This document shows positions 8,062-55,039 of a DNA stretch of 64,000 nt, in pieces. The notes below the pieces were generated by a model. It did no database searches and was not told where the DNA came from. It saw only the letters and a list, made by a program, of their open reading frames with translations. The DNA lies in NCBI GenBank assembly GCA_028280485.1, contig JANQLS010000062.1, positions 5,899 through 69,898 of the forward strand, in the 5' to 3' direction. Every line of letters begins with the position of its first letter. The stretch's first letter is position 1. Position numbers and translations under genes: made by a program. Origin of the DNA: Planctomycetota bacterium (GTDB taxonomy: Bacteria; Planctomycetota; UBA8108; JACQVS01).

Positions 8062-8214
8062 TTAGTAAGCCCGGAGCGTCAGCGACGGGATCTCGTTGAG
8101 AAAATCCCCTTTGTGGCATGCTTTTATCGACGGCCAAGGCCTTTATGCTCGTCCCATAAAGCCTTTAATCAAAAGTTTAATCGTGTCCCGTCGCTTACGC
8201 TTCGGGCTAGTTAA
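8062..8214. repeat. Palindromic element copy 1 (subfamily B). The 29-bp terminal inverted repeats ttagtaagcccggagcgtcagcgacggga / tcccgtcgcttacgcttcgggctagttaa flank about 95 bp of unique sequence.
   Basis: Read directly from the sequence. The arms are reverse complements with two mismatches or wobbles. The element sits 3' of hemL. Confidence 0.8.
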
Positions 8215-8381
8215 ATTTATCGTGCTGGGACAAGCCCAGGCGCTACAGGCGAAAATCCATTTAAATTTATTGCCGCATCGGAAGATTTCTTGGGAAGATC
8301 CGTCCTCATTTCACTTAAAATAACCGATTAAACATAAGATTAATCCCCCTGAGAACCAAACCCCTCTGGAGCATTCCATCG

Positions 8382-11300
8382 ATGAGCCATCGTTGTTTTC
8401 CTCTTAGCTACCTACTTCTCGTTGCCGTTACTTTTTTAACATTAACGGTCGCCTCCCCACTGAATTCCGATGAACAAAATTATTGGATTCACACCTTTAA
8501 GCACCACGAACTCTCCGACAAGTTCTATTCAGAGGGAGCGACTTTTGGAGACATCGATGGCGATGGGAATAACGATATCATTTCGGGCCCCTTTTGGTTT
8601 GAAGGCCCCGACTTTAAAACTCGACACGAGTTCTACCAACCCAAAGTTTTCAACGTGAAGGGTTACTCCAATAACTTCTTCCCTTATGTCTACGACTTCA
8701 ATAAGGATGGCAAGAACGACATCCTCATCATCGGTTTCCCTGGGCAAGATGCATCTTGGTTTGAGAACCCCGGAAAAAAAACCACTCACTGGAAACGTCA
8801 CCTCGTTGTCGACGAAGTGAGCAACGAGTCTCCCTCCTTCACTGACATCGATAATGATGGTAAACCCGAAATCGTGGGGATTAGTAAGGGACGTTACGGC
8901 TACTCCGAATTCAATTGGGATAAGCCTCACGAGAAGTGTCGCTTCATCGCCATTTCTCCGGATCATAAATACGGCCGCTTCACTCACGGAATGGGAGTGG
9001 ATGATGTTAATGGCGATGGTCGAAAAGACCTTATCGAGAAAAACGGTTGGTACGAACAACCCTCCAAATTAGACGGTTCTTTGTGGAAGCATCATCGCTT
9101 TGACTTCGTCCCGGGTACAGCTCAAAAGGTTGGCGTTCCCGGCGCAGGTGGGGCTCAAATGTACGCTTACGATGTCGATGGGGATGGAGATCAGGACATC
9201 ATCACTAGTCGTAATGCTCATAACTGGGGATTAGTTTGGTATGAAAATTTAGCTTCGAATGGCGCAAAGGTGGGTCAATTTCATCCGCACCTTATCATGG
9301 GACGCCCCGATGAACCCGCCAAGTACTCCTTGCGAATCGCCCAATTGCACGGAATCGACTTAGTCGACATGGATGGTGATGGGCTCAAAGATATTGTTAC
9401 TGGAGTACGCGTCTGGGCTCACTATGGAGACAAATCTGCCGAACCTCCCGGGAAAGTTTATTGGTTCAAACTGGTCCGCCAAAAAGATAAGACGGTGGAT
9501 TGGGTTCCCCAAAAAATTGATCACAACTCGGGAGTCGGTGTCATGGTCAAAGCGGGGGACGTCGATGGAGATCAACTTCCCGATGTCGTCGTGGGAAACA
9601 AAAAAGGGATCTACTATTTAAAACACCAACGAACGAAAGCGACTCGCGCAGCCTGGAAGAGAACTCAACCCAAAGTCTTTCATACGAAAGGACTCTCTCC
9701 TCAACAAGCCGTCGAAGAGATGACTTTTCCCGAGGGCTTCGAAGTGGAATTAGCAGCCGGTGAACCTTTAGTTCACCAACCGGTAGCCTTCACCGTAGAT
9801 TCCAAGGGACGTCTCTGGGTAGCCGAGGCTCACACGTATCCAACCCGCGTCGGAGGCACCAAAGGAAAGTGGAACGCAGGTAAAGATAAAATCGTGATCT
9901 TAGAGGATCGCGATCAAGATGGAAGCTTTGAAACTCGCAAGGTCTTCATCGAGAACGTCAATCTCATCAGTGCTCTCGAAGTAGGATTCGGTGGAGTATG
10001 GGTTGGGGCTGCACCTTACCTATTATTCTTCCCCGATGCCGATAAAGATGATCGCCCCGACGGAGAGCCAAAGATTCTTTTAGATGGTTTCGGGATTCAG
10101 GACACCCATGAAACTCTCAACTCCTTTCGCTGGGGGCCGGATGGGTGGCTCTATTCCTGCCACGGAATCTTCACTCATTCCTTAGTGGGCAAACCGGGTA
10201 CGCCTGTAGATCAACGGACTCCAATGAATGCCGCTTACTGGCGCTACCATCCCCAACGACACGAAGTAGATGTCTTCGCCTGGGGAACGAGTAATCCTTG
10301 GGGCATGGATTTTAATGATTACGGGCAAGCCTTCAGCTCTGCTTGCGTGATTCCTCACCTCTACCACGTTATCCAAGGAGCACGCTACGTACGACAGGCT
10401 GGGCGACACTTCAATAAATACGTTTACGACGATATCAAGACCATCGCCGACCATCTACACTTTGTGGGAAGCCTCCGCGATCACGCTTGGTGGGGCCACG
10501 AACCGAGAACTCCTCAAAACACTTTAGATGCCGGGGGAGGCCACGCTCACTGCGGGATGATGGTTTACCTGGGCGATAGTTTTCCAGATACTTACCGTAA
10601 CCGTCTCTACATGAATAATATTCATGGGAACCGAATCAATGAAGAGATCACCATTAGAAATGGCTCCGGTTATATCGGCACGCACAGCCCAGATATTGTC
10701 ATCGCCAATGATGCTTGGTTTCGAGGTATAGCCTTAAGATTGGGCCCAACTGGAGATTTCTATTTCTCGGACTGGTACGACAAGAATGCGTGCCATCGAA
10801 CGAATCCTCTAGTTTGGGATCGAAGCAACGGACGTATCTATCGCTTGAGTTACGTAGGACCTTCAGGCAAAGCCCGAAGACTTAAAGTTGATCTCCAGAA
10901 AAAGAGCAATCGCGAACTCGTCGACCTTCAACTTCACAAAAACGATTGGTTTGTAAGAACCGCGAGAAGAATTCTTCAAGAACGTCAACCCGACCCGACG
11001 ACTCACAAGAGCTTGATGGGAATCGTATTTAACAACAAAGACACTACGAGAAGGCTTCGAGCCCTTTGGGCCCTCCACGTTACTCAGGGACTTCAAGCAG
11101 GACATCTCGGGGTCCTGCTGAAGGATCAAGATGAATATATCCGAGCTTGGGCGGTACAACTCTCCTTAGAGGAGCCAGGAAAATTCAGCTCACTCTATCC
11201 CAGCATCGCCAAATTGGGAGCTCGTGAGCCATCACCAACAGTAAGACTTTACTTAGCTTCTGCACTCCAGCGCTTACCGGAGAATTTCGGTAAGCAGTTA

Positions 11301-13064: not shown

Positions 13065-13086
13065 TAGGATTGAACTAAAAAATCCT

Positions 13087-13256
13087 TTAGTAAGCCCGAA
13101 GCTTTAGCGAGGGATCGGAACGCCAACCAAATAAAAAAGCGCCCTACCGTCCCAGGACTCGCGTGAGCGAATCCCCGAACAACCCACTTCGCCTAACAAC
13201 GTAATTAAAAAATCAGGTCTTAATTTCGCACTATCCCTCGCTAAAGCTTCGGGCTT
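13087..13256. repeat. Palindromic element copy 2 (subfamily A). Its arms are tttagtaagcccgaagctttagcgaggga / tccctcgctaaagcttcgggctt.
   Basis: The arms are a perfect 23-bp inverted repeat around a ~120-bp unique centre. It lies 3' of the 1560-aa gene. Confidence 0.8.
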
Positions 13257-13454
13257 CCCTGGCGTAATTTGCATTAAAGGTCTATAGAATTTGTTAGTTC
13301 GATGTTGAGCGTTGAGTCCTATTCTCCCTCCAGTCCATCCGATAAACCCCTGAATACCATAAATCAGCCTAGTCAGCTTCATTTCTTTACTCTATGGATC
13401 GATGTATCGATAGAACGGTCTCTATCTCCATTCCCTTAGATAAAGAAGTGATCC

Positions 13455-14666: not shown

Positions 14667-14712
14667 GCATCAAAGCTGACACTCTTTGAAAGTCCTTGGT
14701 TAAACCACAAAC

Positions 14713-15807
14713 ATGACTCGAAGAACTGAAGAACAAGCACGAGAACTTTTAGAAGAACTCACCCTCTGCCCGGGCATACCCGGTTTCGAAGGCCCCGTGA
14801 GATCTTTGGTCACAAAAACATTAGAGGGACTTTCGAACACCCAGGTCTCAAGAGATGGATTGGGAAGCTTATTGTTCGAAAAATCAGGAACGAGTTCCGG
14901 ACCTCGAATCGCCCTCGACGCTCACATGGACGAAGTGGGTTTTATGGTTCAGAGCATCAGTGAAAACGGAACCATCAAGTTCGTCACCCTCGGCGGCTGG
15001 TGGGGACATGTTCTCTTAGCTCAACGGGTCAACATTCTGACCGACAGCGGCACGATCCCTGGAGTCATCGGAAGTAAGCCCCCTCATTTCCTTTCAGCTT
15101 CCGAACGCAATAAGGTTCAAACCCCCGAGTCGATGTTTGTCGATATCGGAGCTTCCTCCCGAAAAGAAGCCGAGGAATGGGGAGTTCAAGTTGGGGATGG
15201 AATCGTTCCTCACTGTGAATTCATACCGCTTAAAAACGAGAAGATATTAAGTGCCAAGGCCTTCGATGATCGAGTCGGCGTCGGCCTTCTCTTAGAGACG
15301 ATGCTCGGCTTAGAAAATGTAGACCACCCCAATACCACAGTCGGAGTTGCTGCCGTACAGGAAGAAGTGGGTTGCCGAGGTGCCGTGACCTCATCTCATT
15401 TATCCAATCCTGATGTTGGAATTATTCTAGAAGGAACTCCGGCCGACGACACGCCCGGTTTTCCCGTTGATGGTCGCCAAGCGGTTTTCGGCAAAGGACC
15501 TCAGATTCGATTCTTTGATCCCACCGCAATCTCTAATCGTAAGTTGGTACGGAAGGTTCAGGAGGTCGCTGAAGCCAACGAAATCCCGATTCAAATTGCC
15601 GTACGAAGAACGGGAGGGACCGATGCGAAGTCGATCCACATTCACGGCAGGGGAGTTCCCACTGTCGTGATCGGTGTACCAGCACGATATATTCACACCC
15701 ACGTCAGCATGATCCACATGGATGACTACGAAGCAGCCAGGGAACTTTTAGTTGCCTTGGTGCAGTCATTAGACGAAGCGACGGTGAATGCGCTTCATGA
15801 GGATTGA
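14713..15807 (+). CDS. M42-family metallo-aminopeptidase (FrvX/CelM-like)
   Basis: 364 aa with DAHMDEVGFMV, AFDDRVGV and VQEEVGCRGA metal-binding motifs. Confidence 0.8.
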   Translation: MTRRTEEQARELLEELTLCPGIPGFEGPVRSLVTKTLEGLSNTQVSRDGLGSLLFEKSGTSSGPRIALDAHMDEVGFMVQSISENGTIKFVTLGGWWGHVLLAQRVNILTDSGTIPGVIGSKPPHFLSASERNKVQTPESMFVDIGASSRKEAEEWGVQVGDGIVPHCEFIPLKNEKILSAKAFDDRVGVGLLLETMLGLENVDHPNTTVGVAAVQEEVGCRGAVTSSHLSNPDVGIILEGTPADDTPGFPVDGRQAVFGKGPQIRFFDPTAISNRKLVRKVQEVAEANEIPIQIAVRRTGGTDAKSIHIHGRGVPTVVIGVPARYIHTHVSMIHMDDYEAARELLVALVQSLDEATVNALHED

Positions 15808-15832: not shown

Positions 15833-15988
15833 TTTAGTTAGCCCGAAGCGCTAGCGAGGGGTGAAAGAATAATTCTACTTTAAAGTTTACTAATGATGGT
15901 TTTGAGTCGTCTCCACGAAACGCAGGTTCAAGGGGAATGAATCTTAAATCAACGCTTTGTCCCCTCGCTAGCGCTTCGGGCTAGTTAA
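15833..15988. repeat. Palindromic element copy 3 (subfamily A). Its arms are tttagttagcccgaagcgctagcgagggg / cccctcgctagcgcttcgggctagttaa.
   Basis: Perfect 26-bp inverted repeat with a ~100-bp unique centre. It lies 3' of the M42 peptidase gene. Confidence 0.8.
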
Positions 15989-16126
15989 CACGATGGCTCA
16001 CCTCATAAAAATATCCCCTAAAGGCCATTTCGCAGACGGCGATTGTCCTTTAGGGGATTTTCTTTGGTGGATCTCTAGTAGAGGAAAATCCGTTCAGTGA
16101 TTAAGAGTTAATGCAAAGCTTAACTT

Positions 16127-20868: not shown

Positions 20869-20902
20869 ATCTAAAATCTCGATTAGATTTGGAATACAAA
20901 TT

Positions 20903-20963
20903 TAACTAGCCCGAAGCGCTAGCGAGGGGAAATTTCCTCTCGCTAGCGCTTCGGGCTAGTTAA
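20903..20963. repeat. Palindromic element copy 4 (subfamily A, minimal form). Its arms ttaactagcccgaagcgctagcgagggg / cctctcgctagcgcttcgggctagttaa are separated by only 5 nt.
   Basis: A 61-bp near-perfect palindrome lying exactly between the convergent genes 19816..20868(+) and 21066..22436(-). It probably acts as a bidirectional terminator-like hairpin. Confidence 0.8.
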
Positions 20964-21065
20964 CAGGCTTTGATGTTTTGAATGGATTAAATGAAAAAAC
21001 GCCCTAAATGGTTAGAAACCTTCAGGGCGTTTTTAATCTACATAGAACCTTAGAACTCCGATCGA

Positions 21066-25644: not shown

Positions 25645-25680
25645 TCCTTCCTTCTGAACCTTACTACTAAAAACAAAAAA

Positions 25681-25717
25681 GGCGACTCTCTTCGAGAGTC
25701 GCCTTTTTTGTTGGTTT
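25681..25717 (+). terminator. Rho-independent terminator
   Basis: ggcgactctcttcgagagtcgcc hairpin followed by a TTTTTTGTTGG run, 35 nt after the transporter stop codon. Confidence 0.8.
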
Positions 25718-25976
25718 CAAGTTCACCCCCGTAGGGGCAGGGCCCATTAACGGCTAACGCCAAGAAAGGGCCTGCCCGATTCCTTGATAGCCGAATTCAA
25801 TCCCCAAACATTTCATAATGCTCGGGAAACGGGCGCCCACGAGGGGTACCCGTAGCCGAACTTGTCAAAGTTTGGCTGAATACGTTAGCTGGCCAAATTT
25901 TTACAAATTCGGCTACTACGAAAGACATTGATTTTAAGTTAATTCACAAGGACGGTTGTGGAGTTTAAGCAATCCA

Positions 25977-26119
25977 TTAATGAGCCCGGAGCGTAAGCGA
26001 CGGGATCCGTCATCGTGATAAATTCACATTAGACATTTTTTAGGTGAGCTAAGGAGTTTACTATCCAACCGCGAAATACTCTAGCAAAGTCCCGTCGCTC
26101 ACGCTCCGGGCTAGCTAAT
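25977..26119. repeat. Palindromic element copy 5 (subfamily B). Its arms are attaatgagcccggagcgtaagcgacggga / tcccgtcgctcacgctccgggctagctaat.
   Basis: It lies between the convergent transporter(+) and metX(-) genes and has a unique ~85-bp centre. Confidence 0.8.
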
Positions 26120-29160: not shown

Positions 29161-29239
29161 GCGAAAGAACGTTCAACATCGAAATCAAAGGCTCGCCGAA
29201 CCTTAAACACCTTTTACGCCAGGGAAGCCCGAACCTTTA

Positions 29240-29442
29240 GGGAGTGCGTTAGCCGAAGGCTAACTTGCACGATGGAGCGAAGCGACCATTATTACTGCGG
29301 GAGTGCGTTAGCCGAAGGCTAACTTGCACGATAGAGCGAAGCGACCATTATTACTGCGGGAGTGCGTTAGCCGAAGGCTAACTTGCACGGAGCAACGCGA
29401 CCATTGGTACTGCGGAGCGAAGCGACCATTATTACTTCTGCG
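29240..29442. repeat. Tandem array of a 59-bp unit, about 3.5 copies (gggagtgcgttagccgaaggctaacttgcacgatggagcgaagcgaccattattactgcg)
   Basis: Copies begin at 29240, 29299 and 29358 (period 59), followed by a degenerate partial copy. Each unit has a gttagcc-GAAG-ggctaac hairpin. The last unit overlaps the stop codon of the minus-strand gene 29432..30043. Confidence 0.85.
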
Positions 29443-34223: not shown

Positions 34224-34239
34224 AGAACACGAATGTTCT
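34224..34239. promoter_or_regulatory. Perfect 16-bp palindrome AGAACAcgaaTGTTCT 40 bp upstream of the nrdJ ORF start; candidate operator
   Basis: Read from the sequence. It has GAAC-N6-GTTC architecture, reminiscent of LexA/NrdR-type dyad operators, but its identity is unknown. Confidence 0.25.
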
Positions 34240-34279
34240 AGTCTTTGGATAAGGTGAAAAGGTGAAGGGTAAGTAGATT

Positions 34280-37915: not shown

Positions 37916-37948
37916 CGCTCCCGGAAATCACATTAAAAACATAAAAAA

Positions 37949-37980
37949 AGCGCTCCTCATTCAGAGGAGCGCTTTTTTTC
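37949..37980 (+). terminator. Rho-independent terminator of nrdJ
   Basis: agcgctcctc-attca-gaggagcgct hairpin followed by TTTTTTT, 34 nt after the stop codon. Confidence 0.8.
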
Positions 37981-38196
37981 TTAGGTAATCGGTTCAAAGT
38001 AATCCGCACATACTTATTCCAAGCGCGAAGCGTAAGCGAGTGCCATGCGTTTAACTCATCATCGAGGCTTGTGATGGATTTCAGTTCGGCGTGAAACCTG
38101 GTTTTTGGGTTAGTTTGATTTTATTTACGTTGCGGCTTGCCAACCCTCGTTGACACTTCGGGCTTGAAATTGATCACTAAGTGATTCATTGGGCTA

Positions 38197-39835: not shown

Positions 39836-39968
39836 ATTAGTAAGCCCGGAGCGTAGGCGACGGGATACGTCATTGCGATGAATCCGCATAGGTACGTCCT
39901 CAGGGATTAAATTCCCACCCACGCATTACTTTAGCATTGTCCCGTCGCTTACGCTCCGGGCTTATTGA
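39836..39968. repeat. Palindromic element copy 6 (subfamily B). Its arms are attagtaagcccggagcgtaggcgacggga / tcccgtcgcttacgctccgggcttattga.
   Basis: Lies in the 1.25-kb intergenic region upstream of the A2M gene. Its centre is a unique ~75-bp sequence. Confidence 0.8.
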
Positions 39969-40906
39969 TATTGATTCTTAACTCTTTAACCTATTTTCCC
40001 AATGAACTGATTCCCATCACAAGCCTTGATTTTAAGTCAAACGCGTGGCACCCGCTAAGGCTTCGTGCGAGGAATGAGATATTGAAATACTGTTCCGGCT
40101 CACGGGATCAGCTGACTACTTTGCAACGTTTACCCGTAGTTATTTCAAAAAATCTGAATCATAAGTGAACCTAAAAAAATATCGACATCCTATAAAGTTA
40201 ACTCTTTAACGAAGCCGAAAATGACATCGTTTTAAGAAATAAAAACTTACGTCATCAATTGAGCGTTTCGGAATCGAACGCTTAAACCGAACTCATTTTT
40301 TGACATTGAAACAGAACGAAATAACGTTAGGATCTTTTTTGTGAAGTGAAGAGAAGGGTCTCCCTCCAGTCACCTTCTCACCTTGCTATGCTTATATTTT
40401 GTTTCTGTTCATCAATAGGAACAAATTCGTGCGCCAGTAAGAGAACGCACAAAAGCACCCGTGCTCATTTGCACATCCTATTAGATTTACTTTGTAGATT
40501 TCTCACCCCGCTTTGTGAGTCACAGCTCAGCTTGTGCCTCGTATTGATAGTTTTTTGGTGAGTTACTCCATAGTTGTCTACAAACACGCATTTTTTCTAG
40601 CTAAGTCTCTTTGCCAGTCTCTTCGTCTACGCTGTCTTGGTAGGCACTGCTTTCGCTGGCTGATCTGCTGATCTATTGTCAATAAGGCAGCTAAAGCTGC
40701 ACTTAGCGATATTCGTATCTGTATTTCCGTTCTCCGCCCGGATCTACCCAAGAAGGGCTTGAGTGCTCACAACTGAGGCTCGAAATCCATCTCAGGAGAT
40801 CCCATTGGACTGAGGGGGGATAGGCACATGTCTATCGTCGTTCTATCCCCCCAAAGCCCATATTTCGAAGAAGATTGAAGATTGAATTTCAGAGGAGTGA
40901 GCTCTC

Positions 40907-46854: not shown

Positions 46855-49134
46855 ATGATCGAAGTATTGAATAGATTTAAGTTCCGCAAGAACTCAAAGA
46901 CTAAGAAGATCTCTATCTATTCCTCCGATCCCACACCCCCTCCAATCCCCAGCTCAAGATCTTCTCTTCCCGGAAGATTTCTCCGCCTGAGCTCGAGGGG
47001 GTGTGGCTTTTTACTAATTGTTTTCGTTTCACTTTTCATCATCGAATGGATTCGGCTACCAGATCTCAATCAGCTTTTAAGGTCCAAATCCAGCTCCCTC
47101 ATCATCACCGATCGCTGGGGAGAATTTATCGATTTAACTCTTACCCCAGATGATCGCTTAGCGATGTGGGTCTCTCTCGAGGAGATCCATCCTAAAGTTA
47201 TAGAGGCCACCCTCACCGCAGAAGACCAACGGTTTTACGATCATGGAGGAGTCGATCTCCAAGCCGTCAGTCGAGCGGCTTACGACAACCTCAGCAACCA
47301 ACGGATTATCAGCGGCGCTTCAACGGTCACCATGCAGCTCGCAAGACTCTTGCGACCTCTCCCCAGAAGTTTCTACGGAAAGTTCCGCGAGATGGTTTTA
47401 GCCCTTCATATCGAAAACAATTGGGATAAAGAAACGATCTTAGAGTATTACCTCAACTTCGCACCTTACGGGGGAAATGTCTACGGAGTGGAAGCTGCCT
47501 CGAGAAGGTACTTCGGAAAGTCAGCCAAGGAACTCACATTGAGCGAAGCCGCTTTAATTTCAGGGCTTCCTCAATCTCCCTCGCGCTTGAGGCCGGATCG
47601 GTATCCTCAGGCCGCGAAGAAACGAAGAGATTGGATTCTCATGCGTTTGTACGAACTCAAGAAAGTGACTCAAGCTCAGTACGAACGATCCCTTCAAAGA
47701 GAGGTCAGACCTCGATTTCACTCAATTGATAAAACGGCTCCCCATTTTTCACGTTGGTTAGCCTCGAAGATGCCCAGGATTTCGAATCAAGCTAATATTC
47801 ACTCCACGCTCGATCCAGACCTACAAACATTAGCTCAATCCGTGTTGAGCGAGGAACTGGAGCGCATGTCATCCGACGGGATTCAAAACACAGCCTTGAT
47901 CTTAGCTGAAACTCAATCGGGAAAAATCAGAGCTTGGATTGGTTCTCAAGATTTTAACGACCCTGAAGCCGGCCAAGTGGACGGAGCCATCAGTGAACGA
48001 TCACCCGGCTCCCTTCTTAAACCTTTCCTCTTTACCCTCGCCTTTGAAAAAAATTGGATTGATGAGAACACCTTACTCGATGATTCCCCGCGTTATTATC
48101 GCGACGGTTACCGACCCGAAAATTTTTCCCGCTCCTTTAAAGGAAAAGTGACTGCGAGCGAGGCACTTAGAGATTCCCTCAATATCCCTACCTTAGATCT
48201 GTTGAAGTCGATGGGGCTCGGAGAGGTGATCGAAAAGCTAAAAGACTCCGGCTTGGTCAGTTTAAGAAAGAATGCTCAACTCAGTGGGTTGACTTTGGGA
48301 TTAGGCGGAGTGGATGTCACTCTCTATGAACTGATGGAAGCCTACCGTACTTTAGGGAATGGGGGAGTTTACTCTCCCTTAGTCGCTACCGAATCTTCGC
48401 TACAAAAATCTACTCATGACAGTAGAACCCAGAGCAAGTCGAGAATCACTCTAAGCCCTAATCATCGCGTGTTTTCTCAGGAGGCGGTAGAAAAAGTGAC
48501 GAGCATCCTTCAAGAGGTGGGTTTCAGCACGCAAGAGAGGCTCGCCCCGTTAAAGCTACCGGATTTAGCTATCAAAACGGGAACTAGCTTCGGCTTACGG
48601 GATGCCTGGGCTGTCGGCTACAATCAAGATTGGACGATCGGAGTTTGGCTTGGAAATTTTGACGGCTCGGCTTCTAAAGAATTAGTGGGAAGAAAAGCCG
48701 CCGTGCCCTCAATTCTCTCTCTATTCAGATTGCTCCCAGAATTAAACTCCAAAAGATCAAGCACTCCATCAAATCTTGCGTCGACCTCGAAGGACAACCA
48801 ATCCTTAAATCTTAATTCCTTAACTACACCCAAAGCTCCTTATTTCTCCCCAAAAGAATCCTTTAACAACCCTTCAACTCCCTCGATTCAGTGGGTGACG
48901 CCTCCCCATCGAGCCACCATCCTTCACACTCAGCGAGAAGGCGGCGACAAGCTCATCCTTCGGGGAACTTCTTCCATTCCTGAAATCAAATTAAATTGGT
49001 TCATCGATGGGAGTTACCAAGGGCAAACTCGCTCCGGCGAAAACCTCAGCTGGCTCTTAAAATCTGGCGCCCACACCATCACTCTTTCAACAAACACTGG
49101 GCACACCGAAACTCGCACCATTTTTGTTAAATAA
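46855..49134 (+). CDS. pbpC: penicillin-binding protein 1C (glycosyltransferase GT51 + transpeptidase)
   Basis: EDQRFYDHGGVDLQAVSRAAYDNL...ASTVTMQLARLL transglycosylase motifs. A C-terminal beta-sandwich domain is typical of PbpC. It lies 24 nt after the A2M gene. Confidence 0.85.
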   Translation: MIEVLNRFKFRKNSKTKKISIYSSDPTPPPIPSSRSSLPGRFLRLSSRGCGFLLIVFVSLFIIEWIRLPDLNQLLRSKSSSLIITDRWGEFIDLTLTPDDRLAMWVSLEEIHPKVIEATLTAEDQRFYDHGGVDLQAVSRAAYDNLSNQRIISGASTVTMQLARLLRPLPRSFYGKFREMVLALHIENNWDKETILEYYLNFAPYGGNVYGVEAASRRYFGKSAKELTLSEAALISGLPQSPSRLRPDRYPQAAKKRRDWILMRLYELKKVTQAQYERSLQREVRPRFHSIDKTAPHFSRWLASKMPRISNQANIHSTLDPDLQTLAQSVLSEELERMSSDGIQNTALILAETQSGKIRAWIGSQDFNDPEAGQVDGAISERSPGSLLKPFLFTLAFEKNWIDENTLLDDSPRYYRDGYRPENFSRSFKGKVTASEALRDSLNIPTLDLLKSMGLGEVIEKLKDSGLVSLRKNAQLSGLTLGLGGVDVTLYELMEAYRTLGNGGVYSPLVATESSLQKSTHDSRTQSKSRITLSPNHRVFSQEAVEKVTSILQEVGFSTQERLAPLKLPDLAIKTGTSFGLRDAWAVGYNQDWTIGVWLGNFDGSASKELVGRKAAVPSILSLFRLLPELNSKRSSTPSNLASTSKDNQSLNLNSLTTPKAPYFSPKESFNNPSTPSIQWVTPPHRATILHTQREGGDKLILRGTSSIPEIKLNWFIDGSYQGQTRSGENLSWLLKSGAHTITLSTNTGHTETRTIFVK

Positions 49135-49159
49135 CTAATGTAGTCCACACGCAAAGTGG

Positions 49160-49183
49160 TCGGCTCAGAGCCCTCTGAGCCGA
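49160..49183 (+). terminator. Stem-loop after pbpC (tcggctcagag-ccc-ctctgagccga); possible terminator, no T-tract
   Basis: An 11-bp perfect stem 26 nt after the stop codon, with no poly-T run. Confidence 0.3.
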
Positions 49184-49426
49184 TCCTGCATGAATTTCAA
49201 TTCTTATAAATGAACAATACTAAATCGGCTAAATAGCTCTTCGATGACTTTGAATGCCTCTTTGAATTTTATTTCCTACTCACTGGGCGAACCGACTACT
49301 TAGGCTGAAACTTTCAAAATAATATTGATTTTAAATACACGATTGATAACCCTGGTGCTGAATAAAAACAGGGGATTTCAATCTCCTATCCAGAGGCTTT
49401 ACATCGAATTCAATATATCTATTTCC

Positions 49427-51133
49427 ATGAAAAAAATTATCCTTGGAATATTCACATTAATGATCCTGGCCTTCGTTGGTTTATATTTCCTCCTACCTTA
49501 CATCAAAGGTGAGGCCAGGCTCTCAGCAACTCGAGAAGGGCGCGTGATTAAGGATTTCATGGAGGAAAAAATTGACTTTACTGATGCATACAAACAATTC
49601 TCAGCATGGGGAAATGAAGCTTTACCCAACTTAATCAATCTCTCCATCAAAGTGGAAAAGCCCGAACAGGCAGAAGCCATATCTTCAATGTTTAGCGCAA
49701 TTCAAACATTTGAGTGTTTGGAGGCGTACTTCAAAATGTATATCAAACGACATGAGATTCCGGTCAGGGAGATGTCCGATGATTTCAACCTATCTAATCA
49801 ACATTTCTCAAATGGACTATCAGCCGTAAAATATCAACTAGCTGAAAAAAGAAAGCAATTTACTGAAAGTCAGCTGAACAGGATCAAAAATTTATTGATC
49901 TCAGGCTTAGACCATCATTCTGAAGAAATAAGAGGGGAATGCCTTTATACCCTTGCTGAATTCAAAGATCCTGCAACCGTTAAAATTTTTATAGATTATT
50001 ACCATCGAAACCAAAAAAAGGATTCCTATGTCTATAGCGGTGTCCCCGACATCCTTGGGGATATCGGGGGAAATGAAGCTGAAAAATTCTTGTTAGATTT
50101 AGTCAACAAAAATGGCGATCGCCTGGATGATGATGCCATCGACGCCTTGGCTAAAACGGGTACTCCTCTAGCCATAAAAACGATCATTGATGGCTTAATT
50201 AACGAGCCCGATCAACGAAAACATTTAATGTGGTTAAGTGGCTTAGCTATCTCTGCTGATTCTAGCTGTGAGCTTCCTCTTCTAAATATAGCCAAAGATG
50301 TTAACCATCCCTACCGAGAATATGCCGTACAAGCACTAGGCAATTTAAAGAGCGAAGAATCCTTAAACACCATCATCGATTTTGGAATGACTGAATTAGA
50401 CTTAAATAAGGTTTACACTGATTTAGAAGATGCTTTAGAAGCTTTGATCAAGAGACCCGATCCTCGATCGATTCCCTTTTTAAAAGCCGTGCTCGAAAAA
50501 GAAAAAATTAAAGTTTCTCATAAAGAGATCGCGAATATTTCAAGGTATAAGTCTGAAAGTGAAAAGAAGAGAGAAATCAGAAAAATTCAAGATAGGTATG
50601 ATTTTTCGGATCAAAAGAAAAGAGACAAAGCTCTCATTGCTTTAGCTAAAATTGGAACACCAGAAACACTCAAGATCATTTTAAAAGGATATGTGGATCA
50701 TCCGCATCTCAATCCCAAAGATTTTCGTGTATCCGACTTCCCCTTACAATTCATCGATCTCAAATTGATTGTTGAAGAAGTTCAAACTCAAGTTCAAGAA
50801 CAGGAATATCCCAAGGGGTTAGCCGTTGCACTCCTTCTTTTCAATCTTCTTTACCTTGAAGATGCTTCAACCGATTATCTCACTTTAATCAAATCCTTAC
50901 TCCAAGCCCCAGACTGTGAATTATTTAAATATCACTCTTCCAATCAGGCCCATTTTTTAACGAAGTTCATTGTCGCCGAACCCGAAAACGCACTCCTTTT
51001 TATTCCATACCTCCCTAAGAGTCCCTATGGTTGGGCAAGGAATTTTTGGTCGACAGTGAGGCTCGAAAAAATCCCAGAAGAAGTTAAATCAAAAATCGAA
51101 AAGAAGCTACCTTTCAATACCCACCCGAAATAA
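49427..51133 (+). CDS. Membrane-anchored HEAT/PBS-lyase-like repeat protein, paralog A
   Basis: The ORF track starts at 49325. The likely start MKKIILGIFTLMILAFVGLYFLLPYIKGE (ATG 49427) gives an N-terminal TM helix. Repeated ...LGDIGGNEAEKFLLDLV..., ...LAKTGTPLAIKTIIDGL... and ...LAKIGTPETLKIILKGY... units follow. The neighbouring paralog B (51801..53600) is about 600 aa with the same architecture. Confidence 0.6.
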   Translation: MKKIILGIFTLMILAFVGLYFLLPYIKGEARLSATREGRVIKDFMEEKIDFTDAYKQFSAWGNEALPNLINLSIKVEKPEQAEAISSMFSAIQTFECLEAYFKMYIKRHEIPVREMSDDFNLSNQHFSNGLSAVKYQLAEKRKQFTESQLNRIKNLLISGLDHHSEEIRGECLYTLAEFKDPATVKIFIDYYHRNQKKDSYVYSGVPDILGDIGGNEAEKFLLDLVNKNGDRLDDDAIDALAKTGTPLAIKTIIDGLINEPDQRKHLMWLSGLAISADSSCELPLLNIAKDVNHPYREYAVQALGNLKSEESLNTIIDFGMTELDLNKVYTDLEDALEALIKRPDPRSIPFLKAVLEKEKIKVSHKEIANISRYKSESEKKREIRKIQDRYDFSDQKKRDKALIALAKIGTPETLKIILKGYVDHPHLNPKDFRVSDFPLQFIDLKLIVEEVQTQVQEQEYPKGLAVALLLFNLLYLEDASTDYLTLIKSLLQAPDCELFKYHSSNQAHFLTKFIVAEPENALLFIPYLPKSPYGWARNFWSTVRLEKIPEEVKSKIEKKLPFNTHPK

Positions 51134-51353
51134 ATGCAGTCGAATCCAGCCGGCCTCCATTTCAAGCCCGAAGTGTTAACGAGGGATATCTTCCTTATAC
51201 CCTCAATAGGCCAAATGCTTGAGGAGTGATTCATCGACGAGTTGGAAAAATGGATCGCACCACGATTCCAAGACGTTCTTCAATATTAGAGCGAAACGAG
51301 GCACTCGCTGACGCTGCATGCTTAAAATCATTGTCTATAAGCGACAATACACT

Positions 51354-51577
51354 CAAGGGCTGTAAGCCCGCAACTTCATAGCCCAGGGCAGAGCGAAGCG
51401 TCGCCCTGGGTAAAGGTAGAGTCGAGCTCAAGAACAAAGCACTGTGGAGCGAGATTAACCTCTTAATTTTTAATGCAATAATCAACGGCATGAATTGCGA
51501 CTCAAGTCAATCCAAAAGCCAAGGGCTGAAAGCCCGCAACATTATAGCCCAGGGCAGAGCGAAGCGTCGCCCTGGGT
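51354..51577. repeat. Two direct copies (51354..51410 and 51521..51577) of a 57-nt double-hairpin repeat: aagggctgWaagcccgcaacWtYatagcccagggcagagcgaagcgtcgccctgggt
   Basis: Read from the sequence. Each copy carries hairpins gggct-gtaa-agccc and cccagggc-agagcgaagcgtc-gccctggg. The copies are 167 bp apart, in the gap between the two HEAT paralogs. Confidence 0.8.
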
Positions 51578-51800
51578 TGAATTAGAGGAAAGAGCCAAGC
51601 CCTGTAAGGGCGGCAGTATTTGAAACACGTTTAAATTGGCTGCATCTTTCTAAGATCAACGATCAATGCATCTGAATATCTATTGATTTTAGTTCTTAAT
51701 TCTAAGAAGCTATCTCCTCACTTATCACAACATCAAAACCAGTTAGTGGGAAATCACTTCTCCGTCGGTAATTCCCGACCCACATATTGAATATTTCAGA

Positions 51801-53600
51801 ATGAAAAAATTCATTTTCGGACTCACTATTTTCTTCCTAGCATCTTTCGTCGGACTGTATCTAATCCTCGGATACATCAAGAAGGATGAACGTGATTTAA
51901 GTACAAAGGAAATCAATTCGAGGGATACAGAAGGTAATTTAAAGACACATATAAAAGAATTAACTGCTGAGGAAGAAATCAAATTAAGAAATTCGAGGGA
52001 AGGGAAAATCTTATTTCCATTTTTGGACAATCGTGAGCCCACTGTATCTTATAAACAACGCCATAAGCTCTTTCAAGAATGGGGTGATTCAGCTCTTCCA
52101 AACTTAAAGAAAATAGCTCTCATGGTAAAAAAGCAAGAATCAGCATACCATGTTCACTTTGTATTTCTTTCCATAGGCACATTAGAAGCTTACCGAGTCT
52201 ATTTAGAAGTTTTATATGAACGCTGCCTGATCCCTCAAAATAAACAAAGTGAGGAATCCTTAGAAGCCCTAAACTTATTTCGTTCAAATAGAGAAGAATT
52301 CTTTACAAAGGTCAAAGAACAATTTTTTAAAGCGAAAGATTCAGATCGAAAAGAGTTCATTCAACTAGCTCTAAAGGGAATACAACTTGAAGATCCTACT
52401 TTCAGATTGGGATTCTTGTATCTTCTTGGAGAATTTAAAGCCAGAGAAACCACAACTCAGGTCATTGATTACTTTAATAAATACGAAAAAAATTTAGACA
52501 AACACTATCAAGTCTTAGCCCCAACAGTACTCGGTTTAATTGGGGGAGCAAAAGCTGAGCAATTCTTAATCGAATTGCTTCATTCAGACTTAAAGGTAGC
52601 AAAAAGCGCAATTTCTCCACTTGGAGACCTTGGTACAAAAAAAGCACTTGCTGAATTTATAAAGAGGGTAGCTTCTACTTCCGACAACTGGGAACAAGGC
52701 AGATGGCTGAATGCATTCAGTGGCTCCGTAGACAACTCATGCGAAGATGTTTTAATTAAAATTGCCTCTCAGGAAGGAGGCAGTCAACATTCTGCCATTG
52801 GATTACTCGGACAGCTTACTACTCAGAGCTCAGAAGATTTCATTATTAAATGGGGGATACAACAGTTCAAAGAAGATCCAGATGAATACTCGACTTTTTT
52901 AAGAGTGCTAAGAGAAAGGAAAATCAATAACCCTCGAGTGATTTCGTTTTTAAAAACTATCTTGGATGCTCCTAACTTTAAATTCGATGAAGATAAATTC
53001 GCGGAACACTCCAAAGGTTGGACCGCCGAAAGAAAGGAGAGTGTTACTGCCAAGCTGAAACAAAACGCGATCAATCGTTCAATCAGGAGAAGGATAACCG
53101 TCTTAGGAGTTTTAGGAGACACCGGGACTCCAGAAGCTATCAACATGGCGCTCCAAGGTTTTGTGAGTTCAGAAATCTTTGGGCCTAAAAACATTAAGTA
53201 CCTATTCAATTGGCCGTTTGTCAGAACCGACATAGATCTTTTATCTAAACTCACTACCGCTCAGATTAAAAACAAAACACTCCCTCCCGAAATCGGGGCT
53301 GTCATATTGATAAAATCGAATCCTGAGTCAGAAACCATCTCGAAAGCCTACAAAGAGGCCCTCATCTATGCCTTGAGTTTCAAAAAAGGCATCAGCGAGC
53401 ATTTCGACTACTCTGGGCACTTTAGCCAAAAACGTTTCAAATTGATAATATCCGATGCGGATATTGCTTTATCACTCGCCACAAATTCAAAGGGCGCACC
53501 AGCGAAAAAGATTATGTCTTTTAGGAGAGCTATAAGGGAGAGTGATTACCCAAAAAACATCAAAGACCAAATCGAAGAAGAACTCTCAAAATTAAAATGA
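51801..53600 (+). CDS. Membrane-anchored HEAT/PBS-lyase-like repeat protein, paralog B
   Basis: Starts MKKFIFGLTIFFLASFVGLYLILGYIKKDE, followed by HEAT-like repeats (LGLIGGAKAEQFLIELL, LGDLGTKKALAEFIKRV, LGVLGDTGTPEAINMAL). It is paralogous to 49427..51133. Confidence 0.6.
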   Translation: MKKFIFGLTIFFLASFVGLYLILGYIKKDERDLSTKEINSRDTEGNLKTHIKELTAEEEIKLRNSREGKILFPFLDNREPTVSYKQRHKLFQEWGDSALPNLKKIALMVKKQESAYHVHFVFLSIGTLEAYRVYLEVLYERCLIPQNKQSEESLEALNLFRSNREEFFTKVKEQFFKAKDSDRKEFIQLALKGIQLEDPTFRLGFLYLLGEFKARETTTQVIDYFNKYEKNLDKHYQVLAPTVLGLIGGAKAEQFLIELLHSDLKVAKSAISPLGDLGTKKALAEFIKRVASTSDNWEQGRWLNAFSGSVDNSCEDVLIKIASQEGGSQHSAIGLLGQLTTQSSEDFIIKWGIQQFKEDPDEYSTFLRVLRERKINNPRVISFLKTILDAPNFKFDEDKFAEHSKGWTAERKESVTAKLKQNAINRSIRRRITVLGVLGDTGTPEAINMALQGFVSSEIFGPKNIKYLFNWPFVRTDIDLLSKLTTAQIKNKTLPPEIGAVILIKSNPESETISKAYKEALIYALSFKKGISEHFDYSGHFSQKRFKLIISDADIALSLATNSKGAPAKKIMSFRRAIRESDYPKNIKDQIEEELSKLK

Positions 53601-53635
53601 GAAATTAGTATATTCCTGAATTACAATCCCCACCC

Positions 53636-54748
53636 ATGAACCCAACCACCCACCAAATTCACTTCAACACCGCGGAAGACATGTCACCCTTAGCCGATGC
53701 CAGCGTGCAATTGGTGGTGACGTCACCTCCTTACCCAATGATCGAAATGTGGGATGGGATCTTTGGGGAACAAGACTCTGAAATTGAGAAAAGTCTTGAG
53801 GCGGGGGAAGGCTACAGAGCCTTCGAAGCGATGCACCAAATTTTGGATCGCGTTTGGAGTGAATGTGAACGCGTCCTCGCTCCGGGAGGCATCGCGTGTA
53901 TCAATATTGGGGACGCAACCCGTACGATCGATTCGAAATTTGAGCTCTATCCCAATCATTCTCGAATTCAGACGGCTCTCCTGAAACTGGGCTTTTCAGT
54001 TCTACCCGGTATCTTATGGAGAAAACCTACCAACGCTCCCAACAAGTTCATGGGATCGGGGATGTACCCACCGGGAGCCTACGTCACTTTAGAACACGAA
54101 CACATCTTGGTCTTCCGAAAAGGAAATAAGAGAGTCTTTAATTCAGAAAAAGAAAAAGAGAATCGACGCCAAAGCGCTTACTTCTGGGAAGAGCGCAATT
54201 CTTGGTTTTCAGACGTCTGGTTCAAGCTCTTGGGAACTCGCCAGGATCTTCTCAATCCCAAGTTGAGAGCCCGTTCTGCGGCTTACCCCTTCGAACTTCC
54301 ATACACATTGATTCAAATGTTCTCTGTCATGGGAGACACCGTCCTGGATCCTTTCTTGGGGCTCGGAACCACTCAGTTCGCTGCGATGGCAACAGGAAGA
54401 AATAGCGTTGGCTTCGAAATCGATCCAAAACTGAAAGAGAGCATCGAAAGTAGCCATGCCCCCTTGCCCGATTTTGCCCAATCTTTAGTTCGAGGTCGCC
54501 TGGAAGAACACACCAACTTTATAAAGCAACGGTTCGAGAAGAAGGGGGCTTTTAAATACTCCAGTCGATACTATGAGTTCCCAGTTGTAACAAGGCAGGA
54601 AATCGAAATTCAATTTCCTGTTCTCGAAAAAATTGAAGGAACCAGTAAAGAAAAGTTCATCGCTGAATATACACATTCCTTAGCTTGGCAAACCGACCTC
54701 ACCCAAGATTGGGCTTCTTTTATGAAGGAAACGGAGACGACCGAATGA
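53636..54748 (+). CDS. beta-class N4-cytosine/N6-adenine DNA methyltransferase (motif IV SPPY before motif I)
   Basis: VVTSPPYPM (motif IV) followed, after about 200 aa, by VLDPFLGLGTTQFAAMATGRNSVGFEIDP (motif I, FxGxG). This domain order defines the beta class. No adjacent endonuclease gene was recognised. Confidence 0.75.
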   Translation: MNPTTHQIHFNTAEDMSPLADASVQLVVTSPPYPMIEMWDGIFGEQDSEIEKSLEAGEGYRAFEAMHQILDRVWSECERVLAPGGIACINIGDATRTIDSKFELYPNHSRIQTALLKLGFSVLPGILWRKPTNAPNKFMGSGMYPPGAYVTLEHEHILVFRKGNKRVFNSEKEKENRRQSAYFWEERNSWFSDVWFKLLGTRQDLLNPKLRARSAAYPFELPYTLIQMFSVMGDTVLDPFLGLGTTQFAAMATGRNSVGFEIDPKLKESIESSHAPLPDFAQSLVRGRLEEHTNFIKQRFEKKGAFKYSSRYYEFPVVTRQEIEIQFPVLEKIEGTSKEKFIAEYTHSLAWQTDLTQDWASFMKETETTE

Positions 54749-54842
54749 GCAAAACAAGCCCTCTGGATATCTTGAAATGCCTCATTGATTATCGTGGAGA
54801 GGTCAATTAAACTCTTCCTGAGTTCTACTTAACTCCTTCAAA

Positions 54843-54914
54843 GCCCCCGTAGTTCAACGGATAGAATATAGGTTTCCTAAACCTGAGATAGAGGTTCGAT
54901 TCCTCTCGGGGGTA
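54843..54914 (+). tRNA. tRNA-Arg (anticodon CCU)
   Basis: Manual cloverleaf. Acceptor gcccccg/cgggggt (G1-U72), D-stem gttc/gaat, anticodon stem taggt/acctg with loop ttCCTaa, 4-nt variable loop, T-arm agagg-ttcgatt-cctct, discriminator A. CCA is not encoded. Confidence 0.8.
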
Positions 54915-55015
54915 CTCCTCTCCTCACCTAAACGATCACTTCAAAATGGATCTTTCTACAAATGATGCTTCCTGGTGGAAGTGAACTTTTAGAATAATTT
55001 ATTTTCCAACCTTTC

Positions 55016-55039
55016 AAGCCCGAAGCTTTGGCGAGGGAT
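55016..55039. repeat. Solo arm of the palindromic element family (caagcccgaagctttggcgaggga) with no partner arm
   Basis: Matches the subfamily-A left arm. No reverse-complement arm lies within 300 bp downstream. Confidence 0.6.

Follow-up and report, generated by a model that had tools for sequence, protein, structure and literature searches.

What are the palindromic elements that recur among the genes of this planctomycete DNA? The window, that is the whole 64-kb stretch analysed, was first described as carrying six full copies and two solo arms of a dispersed family, in which conserved inverted arms enclose variable centres. Motif and inverted-repeat scans find the six copies and both solo arms where they had been placed, but a seventh, degraded doublet at 38016-38170 had been missed.

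The arm motif and its small hairpin

The 22-nt motif AGCCCGRAGCGNNAGCGASGGG has 16 matches at three or fewer mismatches in the window, compared with 0.03 expected from 100 shuffles. A nhmmer profile and a covariance model each return exactly the same 16 arms and nothing further. They comprise seven inverted doublets and two solo arms. The six pairs reported originally are the six strongest inverted repeats of the window, with arms of 23-34 nt, complementarity of 87-100%, and a separation of 0-117 nt. The features are as follows.

Doublet e1: 8062..8214, arms 8068-8089 (+) and 8187-8208 (-), centre 97 nt; 68 nt past the hemL stop, with co-directional genes on either side.
Doublet e2: 13087..13261, arms 13093-13114 (+) and 13234-13255 (-), centre 119 nt; arms of 24 nt, 100% complementary and of the rare 'GCTTTAGC' subtype; 22 nt beyond the stop of a 1560-aa gene.
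Doublet e3: 15833..15988, arms 15840-15861 (+) and 15961-15982 (-), centre 99 nt; identical 22-mers in both arms; flanked by convergent genes, with a terminator-like palindrome at 16007-16064.
Doublet e4, the tight-hairpin form: 20902..20963, arms 20908-20929 (+) and 20936-20957 (-), spacer 6 nt; the neighbouring genes converge, and a terminator-like palindrome lies at 20995-21034.
Doublet e5: 25976..26119, arms 25983-26004 (+) and 26091-26112 (-), centre 86 nt; the metX stop is 8 nt away, and a bidirectional terminator lies at 25672-25712.
Doublet e6, degraded: 38016..38170, arms 38022-38043 (+) and 38143-38164 (-), centre 99 nt; each arm has 3 mismatches to the consensus, and the subtypes differ; convergent genes on either side and a terminator at 37943-37979.
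Doublet e7: 39836..39969, arms 39843-39864 (+) and 39941-39962 (-), centre 76 nt; in the 1250 nt that separate two divergent genes, 179 nt ahead of a gene start.
Solo arm AGCCCGAAGTGTTAACGAGGGA: 51160..51187 (+), 26 nt past the stop of the gene at 49325-51133; inner stem GT/AC in place of GC/GC.
Solo arm AGCCCGAAGCTTTGGCGAGGGA: 55012..55039 (+), 97 nt past tRNA-Arg(CCT).
Degenerate arm and tandem array: 29221..29436 (+); the arm at 29221-29250 is CAGGGAAGCCCGAACCTTTAGGGAGTGCG, with a foot identical to that of e2's right arm, and three 59-nt tandem units follow downstream, each with a hairpin GTTAGCC-GAA-GGCTAAC and one GGAGCGAAGCGACC box; judged by a partial resemblance in sequence, probably a rearranged relative of the repeat family.

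Published counterpart: Quentin, Siguier, Chandler & Fichant 2018 (BMC Genomics 19:475; PMC6006769) describe the REP-like sequences of class-3 TnpA_Y1 (HuH-Y1) genes. Table S1 of that paper contains ACGAGCCGGAAGCGTCAGCGACGGGCATTT and CACGAGCCGGAAGCGTGAGCGACGGGT, which adjoin the class-3 gene ADG69454.1 of P. limnophilus and are drawn as (((..((....))..))). The window arm GTAAGCCCGGAGCGTCAGCGACGGGA differs from these entries at about 4 of 25 positions. From the 5' foot inward, it is built of a stem of 3-4 bp, a GA/GA internal loop, a second stem of 2 bp, and a loop reading G-Y-N-A. In sequence and fold the arms agree with the class-3 type, a weak hairpin whose purine internal loop is 2x2 or 3x2 and whose tetraloop is GNNA. 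The original prediction had argued against REPs. This argument fails because a 22-nt arm on its own already counts as a REP-like motif, one that has been listed for a planctomycete (PMC6006769), and because a spaced inverted pair of REPs is what defines REPINs and BIMEs (PMC3337134, PMC3333891). A match to a REP or MITE family catalogued in this genus had been named as the result that would overturn the prediction; such a match has largely been found, except that the catalogued example comes from another genus.

Support for the fold: Twenty-five arms were compared, drawn from the window, P. limnophilus, Legionella, and Solibacter. Two-sided changes occur in four of the six proposed pairs, three of them C-G to G-C and one C-G to T-A. 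Paired cells make up 83%, compared with 65% in shuffles and at most 46% with partners slid, although this covariation has few independent events behind it, essentially two clades. Pair 6-19 is G-C in 158 planctomycete copies and C-G in 16. The loop reads G(99%)-Y(92%)-N-A(95%) in 237 copies outside the window, and two linked subtypes, G7/C19 and A7/G19, occur side by side. The fold of the type-1 arm is weak (-5.2 kcal/mol, z = -1.4), and the minimum-energy fold of the remaining three arm types differs from the small hairpin. Quentin et al. 2018 likewise remark on the weak energetics of the class-3 fold (PMC6006769).

Foot: The published CnGA foot is not kept in the window, where feet read TTARYW-A. 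The six bases ahead of AGCC are TTAGTA, TTAGTT, TTAACT, TTAATG or TTTCA, with only the final A constant. Other planctomycete loci have C (34%) or A (41%) at position -3 and G (40%) at position -1, which is a partial fit to CnGA. The GTAG foot of the class-2 RAYT type is absent from the window arms, and the published listing assigns the motif to class 3 and not to class 2.

Doublets and their centres

Layout: Across all loci, 80 pairs have their feet outward and 8 have them inward. The spacer has its mode at 8-13 nt and a tail to 119 nt, ranging over 2-119 nt in the loci and 6-119 nt in the window, so that the long centres of the window (74-119 nt) are the upper tail of the planctomycete spacer distribution. 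The two arms of a pair are concerted: they have the free loop dinucleotide in common in 50 of 80 pairs, compared with 15 expected and a maximum of 26 in 1000 partner shuffles, and they are of the same subtype in 54 of 80 pairs (30 expected) and in six of the seven window doublets. The doublets behave as units. Solo arms and same-strand tandem arrays also occur, for example five copies with a 31-nt period at one locus (L077), which indicates that the 22-nt motif is the unit, and not the long hairpin.

Centres: Folding of the elements as single-stranded DNA had been proposed as a check. It gives a strong hairpin for e4 (-35.5 kcal/mol, z = -11.4), but not for the centres, whose fold-energy z-scores lie only between -0.5 and +1.4, and a structured centre was rejected for this reason. 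The long centres behave like ordinary unstructured intergenic DNA. They were described as unrelated to one another, and this is true for most: 19 of the 21 pairings of window doublets are unrelated in either orientation, and 2 of 30 pairwise comparisons over both orientations reach p <= 0.05, uncorrected. The exception is e5 and e7, which share an in-register 19/25 match adjoining the left arm; it is weak (p about 0.03, uncorrected, in 30 comparisons). The only other related centres are three same-locus or near-locus pairs. The arms of e3 and e4 are identical, around centres of 99 and 6 nt.

Flanks: A TTAA or TA target duplication had been suggested as something to look for. The flanks of the elements have no target-site duplication, and the outer TTAR ends are mutually inverted, not direct, and therefore belong to the arms.

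These features bear on a reading of the elements as MITE-like deletion derivatives of a TIR transposon, with either a DDE transposase or a TIR-associated tyrosine transposase ('TIRtron'), in which the differing centres would be differing remnants of the parent element. The inverted arms over 24-34 nt, the lengths of 60-175 bp within the MITE range, and the in-register stretch of e5 and e7 beside the left arm are in line with it, and Di Nocera et al. 2013 report tyrosine-transposase genes flanked by long TIRs, with dispersed TIR repeats as dimers and clusters. It is nevertheless quite improbable. The original prediction already argued against a classical MITE, and it is borne out by the lack of both a conserved interior and direct flanking repeats, since the inverted TTAR belongs to the arms. 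The same arms enclose a 99-nt and a 6-nt centre in e3 and e4. Solo arms and head-to-tail arrays occur as well, which is unlike TIR ends, and the arm corresponds to a REP-like hairpin from the literature, not to an IS end. In the loci examined, distant arm pairs do not enclose a transposase gene.

Genomic setting and spread

Position: All loci are intergenic, though the intergenic share of the window is only 19.5%. Seven of the nine window loci sit 8-68 nt from a stop codon, and four of the five convergent gaps are occupied, or all five if the array at 29221..29436, which takes up the fifth, is included. The copies had been placed at gene 3' ends or between convergent genes. Their intergenic location holds throughout, but e7 lies between divergent genes. 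The neighbourhood is a housekeeping one as described, the 34 scanned ORFs of the window being housekeeping or unknown. Of six proteins looked up as exact copies, five have no record; the sixth led to a further 3.3 kb beyond the left end of the window, which contain neither an arm nor a transposase. At E <= 1e-30 the 755-aa neighbour matches nothing but itself.

Terminators: A structured-terminator role was one of the functions first proposed, and it is unlikely. An intrinsic terminator is a G+C-rich hairpin followed by a T-run, and a T-run follows none of the elements. The inverted-repeat scan instead finds classical terminators, with A-tract, stem, and T-tract, separate from but beside e3, e4, e5, and e6. 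A terminator scanner flags no element, although its terminator and promoter totals do not exceed shuffle expectation and are uninformative. The proposed comparison with Rfam yields no family on the elements: the gathering-threshold scan of the window returns only tRNA-Arg and Acido-Lenti-1, both off the elements, and a permissive scan of e4 returns only generic long-hairpin (plant miRNA) matches far under threshold.

Integron-type sites: Imperfect inverted arms around a variable 60-170-bp spacer resemble attC sites, and the elements could on this basis be integron-type or other site-specific recombination targets. The resemblance is formal only, as was originally stated, and this reading is extremely improbable. 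None of the 34 scanned window ORFs is an integrase or recombinase, and the elements lie dispersed between housekeeping genes of both orientations instead of forming a one-directional cassette array. The attC core boxes are GTTRRRY and RYYYAAC, and the outer ends GTTAGCC, GTAAGCC or ACTAGCC misfit them. The same motif also forms hairpins with 8-13-nt loops and tandem arrays in more than 100 planctomycete loci.

Spread: An exact-motif scan of reference genomes finds more than 115 loci, of which 107 are labelled Planctomycetota, from both classes and including Gemmataceae, Pirellulales, Planctomycetaceae, Isosphaeraceae, and Phycisphaerae. Most of these copies are tight hairpins with 8-13-nt loops and outward feet. 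The other loci among 115 include four of Acidobacteriota, which fits the published class-3 host range, and three from one MAG labelled Alcaligenaceae. This agrees with a class-3 distribution over Planctomycetes, Acidobacteria, and some Proteobacteria, possibly at high copy. Four loci on viral contigs carry the motif. A metagenome scan with the lineage-specific foot finds five loci, all from high-GC planctomycetes and none of the source lineage, while a plasmid collection searched with e3 and e4 gives no match or chance 24-nt matches only. Legionella adelaidensis has a solitary sister motif, intergenic among housekeeping genes. In independent Logan contigs of the source organism, all three observable ends fall inside arms, and from these ends the copy number in the source organism is high. 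The arms, at which short-read assemblies of these genomes break, can serve as a simple marker.

Enzyme: No class-3 HuH-Y1 gene is found among the 34 ORFs scanned in the 64-kb window. A regular expression built from the published class-3 signature, not a class-3 protein profile, matches none of the six-frame ORFs of the window and the 115 genome loci, and the signature is also absent once the four viral loci are counted (119 related loci); the viral loci have no HuH gene. When nine RAYT/TIRYT sequences that Di Nocera et al. provide in Additional file 5 serve as queries, phmmer gives a single match, a class-2-like RAYT domain 3.5 kb from a motif (L012). Pfam scans of genes adjoining motif arrays at five loci (L025, L077, L101, L056, L084) return sigma factors, a helicase, an AAA ATPase, and similar proteins, and the Legionella adelaidensis records with the sister motif have housekeeping neighbours only.

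Host function: The setting is also relevant to a different reading, in which the elements are host-selected RNA or DNA structures of gene 3' ends and the HuH-Y1 link is incidental. Their role would be that of a hairpin that stabilises or attenuates transcripts, or of a site bound by a conserved nucleoid protein or RNA-binding protein, and selection, not transposition, would maintain them. The strong conservation of the core across the whole phylum argues for this, as does the tandem G.A and GNNA architecture, which is typical of protein-recognised RNA motifs. Complementarity is retained between partner arms, and most copies lie 8-68 nt past stop codons. Four convergent gaps hold an element between a stop codon and the shared terminator, where it is probably transcribed into the 3' UTR. 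E. coli REPs and BIMEs are known for secondary roles of this type (see the references in PMC8266576). On the other side, the neighbours are unrelated housekeeping genes of no particular pathway, and the site downstream of hemL is not conserved, because the element is missing behind hemL in a relative that keeps the hemE-hemL-large-gene order; its HemL, 77% identical, is the closest in the databases, and this relative is too diverged for defining insertion boundaries. The doublets are symmetric and have no fixed sense relative to a transcript. One of them, e7, is upstream of a gene, same-strand tandem arrays and degraded copies resemble repeat dynamics, and no Rfam family is matched. As a primary explanation a host role is unlikely, but it is compatible with the reading preferred below as a secondary, co-opted function.

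The preferred reading and known systems

The doublets are best explained as REPIN- or BIME-like pairs of a class-3 REP-like motif, with a probability of roughly 0.7. Judged by sequence, the elements are an ordinary member of a published REP-like kind, because their arms are the published REP-like hairpin paired back-to-back. Of the possibilities first offered, a substrate for a DNA-hairpin-binding protein is essentially the one that the evidence favours.

Each arm would be a copy of a REP-like single-strand hairpin motif, and the feet-outward doublet would give either strand of the element one sense copy at its 5' end. Such doublets would be non-autonomous, made and maintained by a single-copy class-3 HuH-Y1 enzyme encoded elsewhere, which would cut and rejoin single-stranded DNA at the hairpins. 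The centre would vary freely because it is outside the recognised unit, and the missing target-site duplication is expected for HuH-Y1 elements. Doublets would persist at harmless sites, directly past stop codons and above all between convergent genes. What the analysis shows directly is the identity of the motif, its layout and polarity, the concerted arms, their location, and the taxonomic spread; a HuH-Y1 enzyme whose gene lies at another place in the genome and which mobilises the doublets, the single-strand mechanism, and any effect on transcripts are inferred. Quentin et al. 2018 state that class-3 enzymes still call for experiments (PMC6006769).

Several points speak against this explanation: the lack of a class-3 gene in the DNA searched, the departure from the CnGA foot, the weak fold of the small hairpin, the few independent events behind the covariation, and a 22-nt core kept across the whole phylum, which is unusual for REPs. 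REPs normally differ from species to species. A joint reading, which is doubtful, takes the core as a phylum-frozen 22-nt module of an ancient class-3 HuH-Y1 partnership, with a spacer-capturing loop and/or 3'-UTR co-option. A doublet loop that accumulates or captures unrelated DNA would explain the identical arms around 6-nt and 99-nt centres. If this joint reading is true, the partnership was largely vertical through the Planctomycetota radiation, with relatives in Acidobacteria and Legionella, and was longer-lived, with less sequence drift, than any described REP/RAYT pair, and both subtypes (G7/C19 and A7/G19) were maintained together.

IS200/IS605: The arms resemble the subterminal hairpins of this family and of its MITE-like derivatives in being imperfect hairpins whose 5' foot is guide-like and which a HuH-Y1 enzyme presumably recognises in single-stranded form, and in lacking a target-site duplication. 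In contrast, the left and right ends of IS200/IS605 share one strand instead of being inverted copies of one another, and these elements carry or derive from tnpA/tnpB.

REPINs: In a REPIN family the spacer has a nearly fixed length of its own and a sequence that can be recognised, whereas spacer length and sequence vary freely here. The GTAG foot is missing, the presumed enzyme is of class 3 and not a class-2 RAYT, and the core is kept across a phylum while REPIN sequences usually differ from one species to another. The seven window doublets and the 80 to 8 excess of outward pairs do comprise two inverted, pairable REP motifs, and like REPINs they are non-autonomous, intergenic, and high in copy number, with partner arms most alike. 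Two inverted REP-type motifs with a spacer and long-hairpin potential are the layout given by Bertels & Rainey 2011 (PMC3337134).

E. coli BIMEs: BIMEs (Ton-Hoang et al. 2012, PMC3333891) likewise have two inverted REPs with a variable linker and are sometimes clustered. They also share the positions at gene 3' ends and between convergent genes. BIMEs have few defined linker types and lengths, whereas the centres here are mutually unrelated, and the REP sequence and foot are unrelated. Binding of gyrase, IHF, and Pol I is documented for the BIMEs themselves.

Class-3 REP-like sequences: A novel class had been proposed, but the arm has about 21 of 25 bases of the P. limnophilus entries, the "atypical REP-like" hairpins of Quentin et al. 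2018, and an identical architecture. The hosts are mainly Planctomycetes, plus Acidobacteria, and the paper describes class-3 genes flanked by such motifs in Planctomycetes, Acidobacteria, and Legionella, and about 600 copies in Solibacter usitatus, so that high copy is possible (PMC6006769). Unlike the published sequences, the CnGA foot is replaced by TTARYW-A, no class-3 gene is found in the 64-kb window and the additional 3.3 kb, and the copies are mostly feet-outward inverted doublets with spacers of 2-119 nt rather than copies flanking the gene. The accessible portions of Quentin et al. 2018 make no mention of a 22-nt core spanning both Planctomycetota classes. The elements are neither a new structured-terminator class nor an integron-like site. 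What the analysis adds is modest: a class-3 motif known from a handful of genomes has an almost invariant 22-nt core in both Planctomycetota classes, and that its usual form is the feet-outward inverted doublet, in which any spacer is tolerated. With these arms, a candidate substrate is at hand for testing class-3 HuH-Y1 proteins biochemically for the first time.

Arms and doublets in the window

The 22-nt core AGCCCGRAGCGNNAGCGASGGG, one copy of which is termed an arm, matches the window at 16 sites with no more than 3 mismatches, where shuffles predict 0.03. The same 16 arms, and no others, are retrieved from the window both by a profile HMM and by a covariance model. They make up seven doublets (e1 to e7), in which two inverted arms enclose a centre or spacer, and two solo arms.

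Elements in the window
8062-8214, e1, doublet
13087-13261, e2, doublet
15833-15988, e3, doublet
20902-20963, e4, doublet, tight hairpin
25976-26119, e5, doublet
38016-38170, e6, doublet, degraded
39836-39969, e7, doublet
51165 and 55017, solo arms

The original prediction listed six full copies and both solo arms, and all of these are present where it placed them; its six pairs are the top six inverted repeats of the entire window. The count of six was incomplete, as it missed the degraded e6. The centres are 6-119 nt long and were described as unrelated between copies, which is true of most, the exception being a weak in-register match of 19/25 between e5 and e7. Their fold energies show no structure above that of shuffled sequence (z-scores from -0.5 to +1.4). 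Doublets e3 and e4 have identical arms and differ by 93 nt in centre length, with the longer centre in e3.

The stretch 29221-29436 contains a strongly degenerate arm followed by three 59-nt tandem units. The units share 92% identity (29240-29415), have no further occurrence in the window, and are continued to 29436 by a related 25-nt repeat. A GGAGCGAAGCGACC box and a hairpin with seven perfect base pairs, GTTAGCC-GAA-GGCTAAC, are present in every unit. By its sequence, the array looks like a rearranged relative, and one guess is that the unit hairpin represents the outer ends of a doublet fused after loss of the interior.

Genomic setting

The source organism, a planctomycete of about 47% G+C, is uncultured and sparsely sampled. 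The NCBI contig that contains the window measures 79,677 bp, and SRR20820735 contains the reads. For its HemL, the protein collection offers no more than 77% identity, with Planctomycetota as the named matches. The 34 ORFs scanned in the window are housekeeping genes, including those for haem synthesis, B12-dependent ribonucleotide reductase, PBP1, MetX, and CCA/poly(A) polymerase, or have no family match. No integrase, transposase, or HuH protein was found among them. This is in line with the earlier remark that the neighbours are housekeeping genes without intI, and the likeness to attC is indeed only formal: the elements are not integron recombination sites.

The element loci are 100% intergenic, against an intergenic share of 19.5% for the window, and 7/9 lie 8-68 nt past a stop codon. 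Doublets occupy four of the five convergent gaps, and the remaining one contains the tandem array. The claim that every copy is intergenic is thus borne out, while its placement of all copies at gene 3′ ends or between convergent genes fails for e7, which lies between divergent genes. The elements probably sit within 3′ UTRs. A family of structured terminators was among the possibilities first offered, but classical A-tract/stem/T-tract palindromes adjoin e3, e4, e5, and e6, and the elements themselves have no T-run; the elements are therefore not the terminators.

Other features of the window include a match to the Acido-Lenti-1 RNA (RF01687) at 51356-51410 on the reverse strand, 170 nt downstream of the solo arm at 51165. 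It covers the full model and, at 38.8 bits, narrowly exceeds the gathering score of 37. The name of the family points to Acidobacteria and Lentisphaerae, and the host here is a planctomycete. The first hairpin of this match has a 13-nt insertion, AGAGCGAAGCGTC, resembling the box of the 29240-29436 array. The 2.5 kb at 31743-34279, between a poly(A)/CCA polymerase-like gene and a class II ribonucleotide reductase gene, comprises no ORF of at least 100 aa on either strand, no Rfam match at E ≤ 0.1, and no REP-like arm, an unusually long non-coding gap for an otherwise dense window. The region 48001-60000 has 41-42% G+C, against 47-50% elsewhere in the window; within it, a stand-alone gene for an N6/N4 DNA methyltransferase (53636-54748) immediately precedes tRNA-Arg(CCT) (54843-54915). 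The region may be an island; no integrase was seen in it.

Identity of the arm and the proposed enzyme

Quentin et al. 2018 (PMC6006769) describe a small class 3 of HuH-Y1 proteins, chiefly from Planctomycetes, Acidobacteria, and Proteobacteria, of about 178 aa and with the signature NHVH ... W[TA] ... YV[VI]xEQ. For Planctomyces limnophilus, whose class-3 proteins include ADG69454.1, their Table S1 has two structures, CACGAGCCGGAAGCGTGAGCGACGGGT and ACGAGCCGGAAGCGTCAGCGACGGGCATTT. In both drawings a short stem leads through a GA/GA internal loop to a second stem of 2 bp, closed by a GNNA loop. With about 21/25 bases shared, the arm GTAAGCCCGGAGCGTCAGCGACGGGA of the window represents this same motif. 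The Legionella and Solibacter entries have equal architecture with the stem letters swapped. Across 25 aligned arms, the share of paired cells is 83%; shuffles reach 65% and slid controls no more than 46%. Both-sided change occurs in 4/6 pairs, with a small number of independent events because the changes fall between two clades. The small hairpin is energetically weak on folding, a weakness that the source paper also remarks on (PMC6006769). The arms very probably belong to the class-3 REP-like motif family (probability about 0.85). The proposal of a new class of element does not survive this match: the elements are a REPIN/BIME-like arrangement of a class-3 REP-like motif, which is already a known kind.

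The Legionella form, CCGAGCCGCGACCGTNAGGGAGCGG, is found in single intergenic copies, each at the 3′ end of a housekeeping gene, in Legionella adelaidensis NCTC12735 (loci L123 at 12003, L129 at 3003, and L131 at 3003). These records are filed as plasmids but carry lysS, prfB, mutS, and the atp operon, and look like chromosome fragments labelled as plasmids.

In independent Logan contigs of the same organism, 3/3 observable ends fall inside arms (window 8088, 15962, and 20926), as would be expected of a high-copy repeat in a de Bruijn assembly. The nearest relative retains the gene order hemE-hemL-large gene but carries no element behind hemL; it is too diverged for an empty site to be delimited. 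The outer-end TTAR is in inverted rather than direct orientation. The resulting lack of a target-site duplication is consistent with HuH-Y1 chemistry and speaks against a DDE-type MITE. Together with the unrelated centres, this upholds the earlier rejection of a classical MITE.

Among the options first offered, a substrate for a hairpin-binding protein is favoured: by its match to the class-3 motif, the arm would be a substrate-type hairpin for a DNA-hairpin-binding enzyme. Neither the window, a further 3.3 kb of flank, nor 119 related loci (115 from reference genomes and four viral) yielded a class-3 gene in searches with the published class-3 signature and with RAYT/TIRYT queries (phmmer). 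No biochemical activity is yet reported for class 3 (PMC6006769). The link from arm to class-3 enzyme in this genome rests on a motif nearly identical to that published for P. limnophilus, and the full mechanism, enzyme included, is likely, with less confidence than the family assignment.

At one related locus (L012), a class-2-like RAYT domain lies 3.5 kb from a motif. The ORF, at 1066-2379 on the reverse strand in the Planctomycetota MAG ACE_PLA33, has a FabZ-like N-terminus, a RAYT/TIRYT-like HuH-Y1 domain (MPNHVH ... FWQ ... KYTLDNP; phmmer E = 3e-9), and a FabZ-like C-terminus. In this arrangement, a fabZ-like gene seems to contain a tyrosine-transposase-like domain in frame.

Spread and layout across Planctomycetota

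Scanning one genome per species for exact matches gives at least 115 loci. Of the 115 matches listed, 4 are labelled Acidobacteriota and 107 Planctomycetota, the latter from Gemmataceae, Pirellulales, Thermoguttaceae, Planctomycetaceae, Isosphaeraceae, and Phycisphaerae. IMG/VR has four matches only. Among the matches listed, 80 pairs are inverted with the feet (the bases 5′ of the arm hairpin) outward and 8 with the feet inward, and the spacers peak at 8-13 nt with a tail to 119. This peak and the mostly feet-outward pairs make the tight hairpin, as in e4, the usual form. Doublets with long centres predominate within the window but represent the tail of the spacer distribution.

Partner arms in the matches listed share the two free loop bases in 50/80 pairs (15 expected, maximum 26 in 1000 shuffles) and the subtype in 54/80 (30 expected). 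Linkage between motif positions 7 and 19 is tight, with G/C in 148 copies, A/G in 77, and 24 discordant among the matches listed; therefore two subtypes coexist across the phylum. The G7...C19 and A7...G19 subtypes occur side by side in single genomes and even in single loci, and simple Watson-Crick pairing does not account for the linkage.

The 22-nt motif also forms same-strand tandem arrays in MAGs of Gemmataceae and Planctomycetales (L077 5393-5540, reverse strand; L101 896-1008; L025 7698-7898). The array of L077 repeats every 31 nt with five copies, and a 90-nt period with three copies is seen as well. Such arrays are incapable of folding into the long hairpin, and their neighbours are ordinary genes, e.g., for a sigma factor and an XPB-like helicase.

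Two features appear to go further than the published accounts: a near-invariant 22-nt core in both classes of Planctomycetota, and a spacer that varies freely between concerted arms. Both are noteworthy, and they leave the classification of the elements unaffected.
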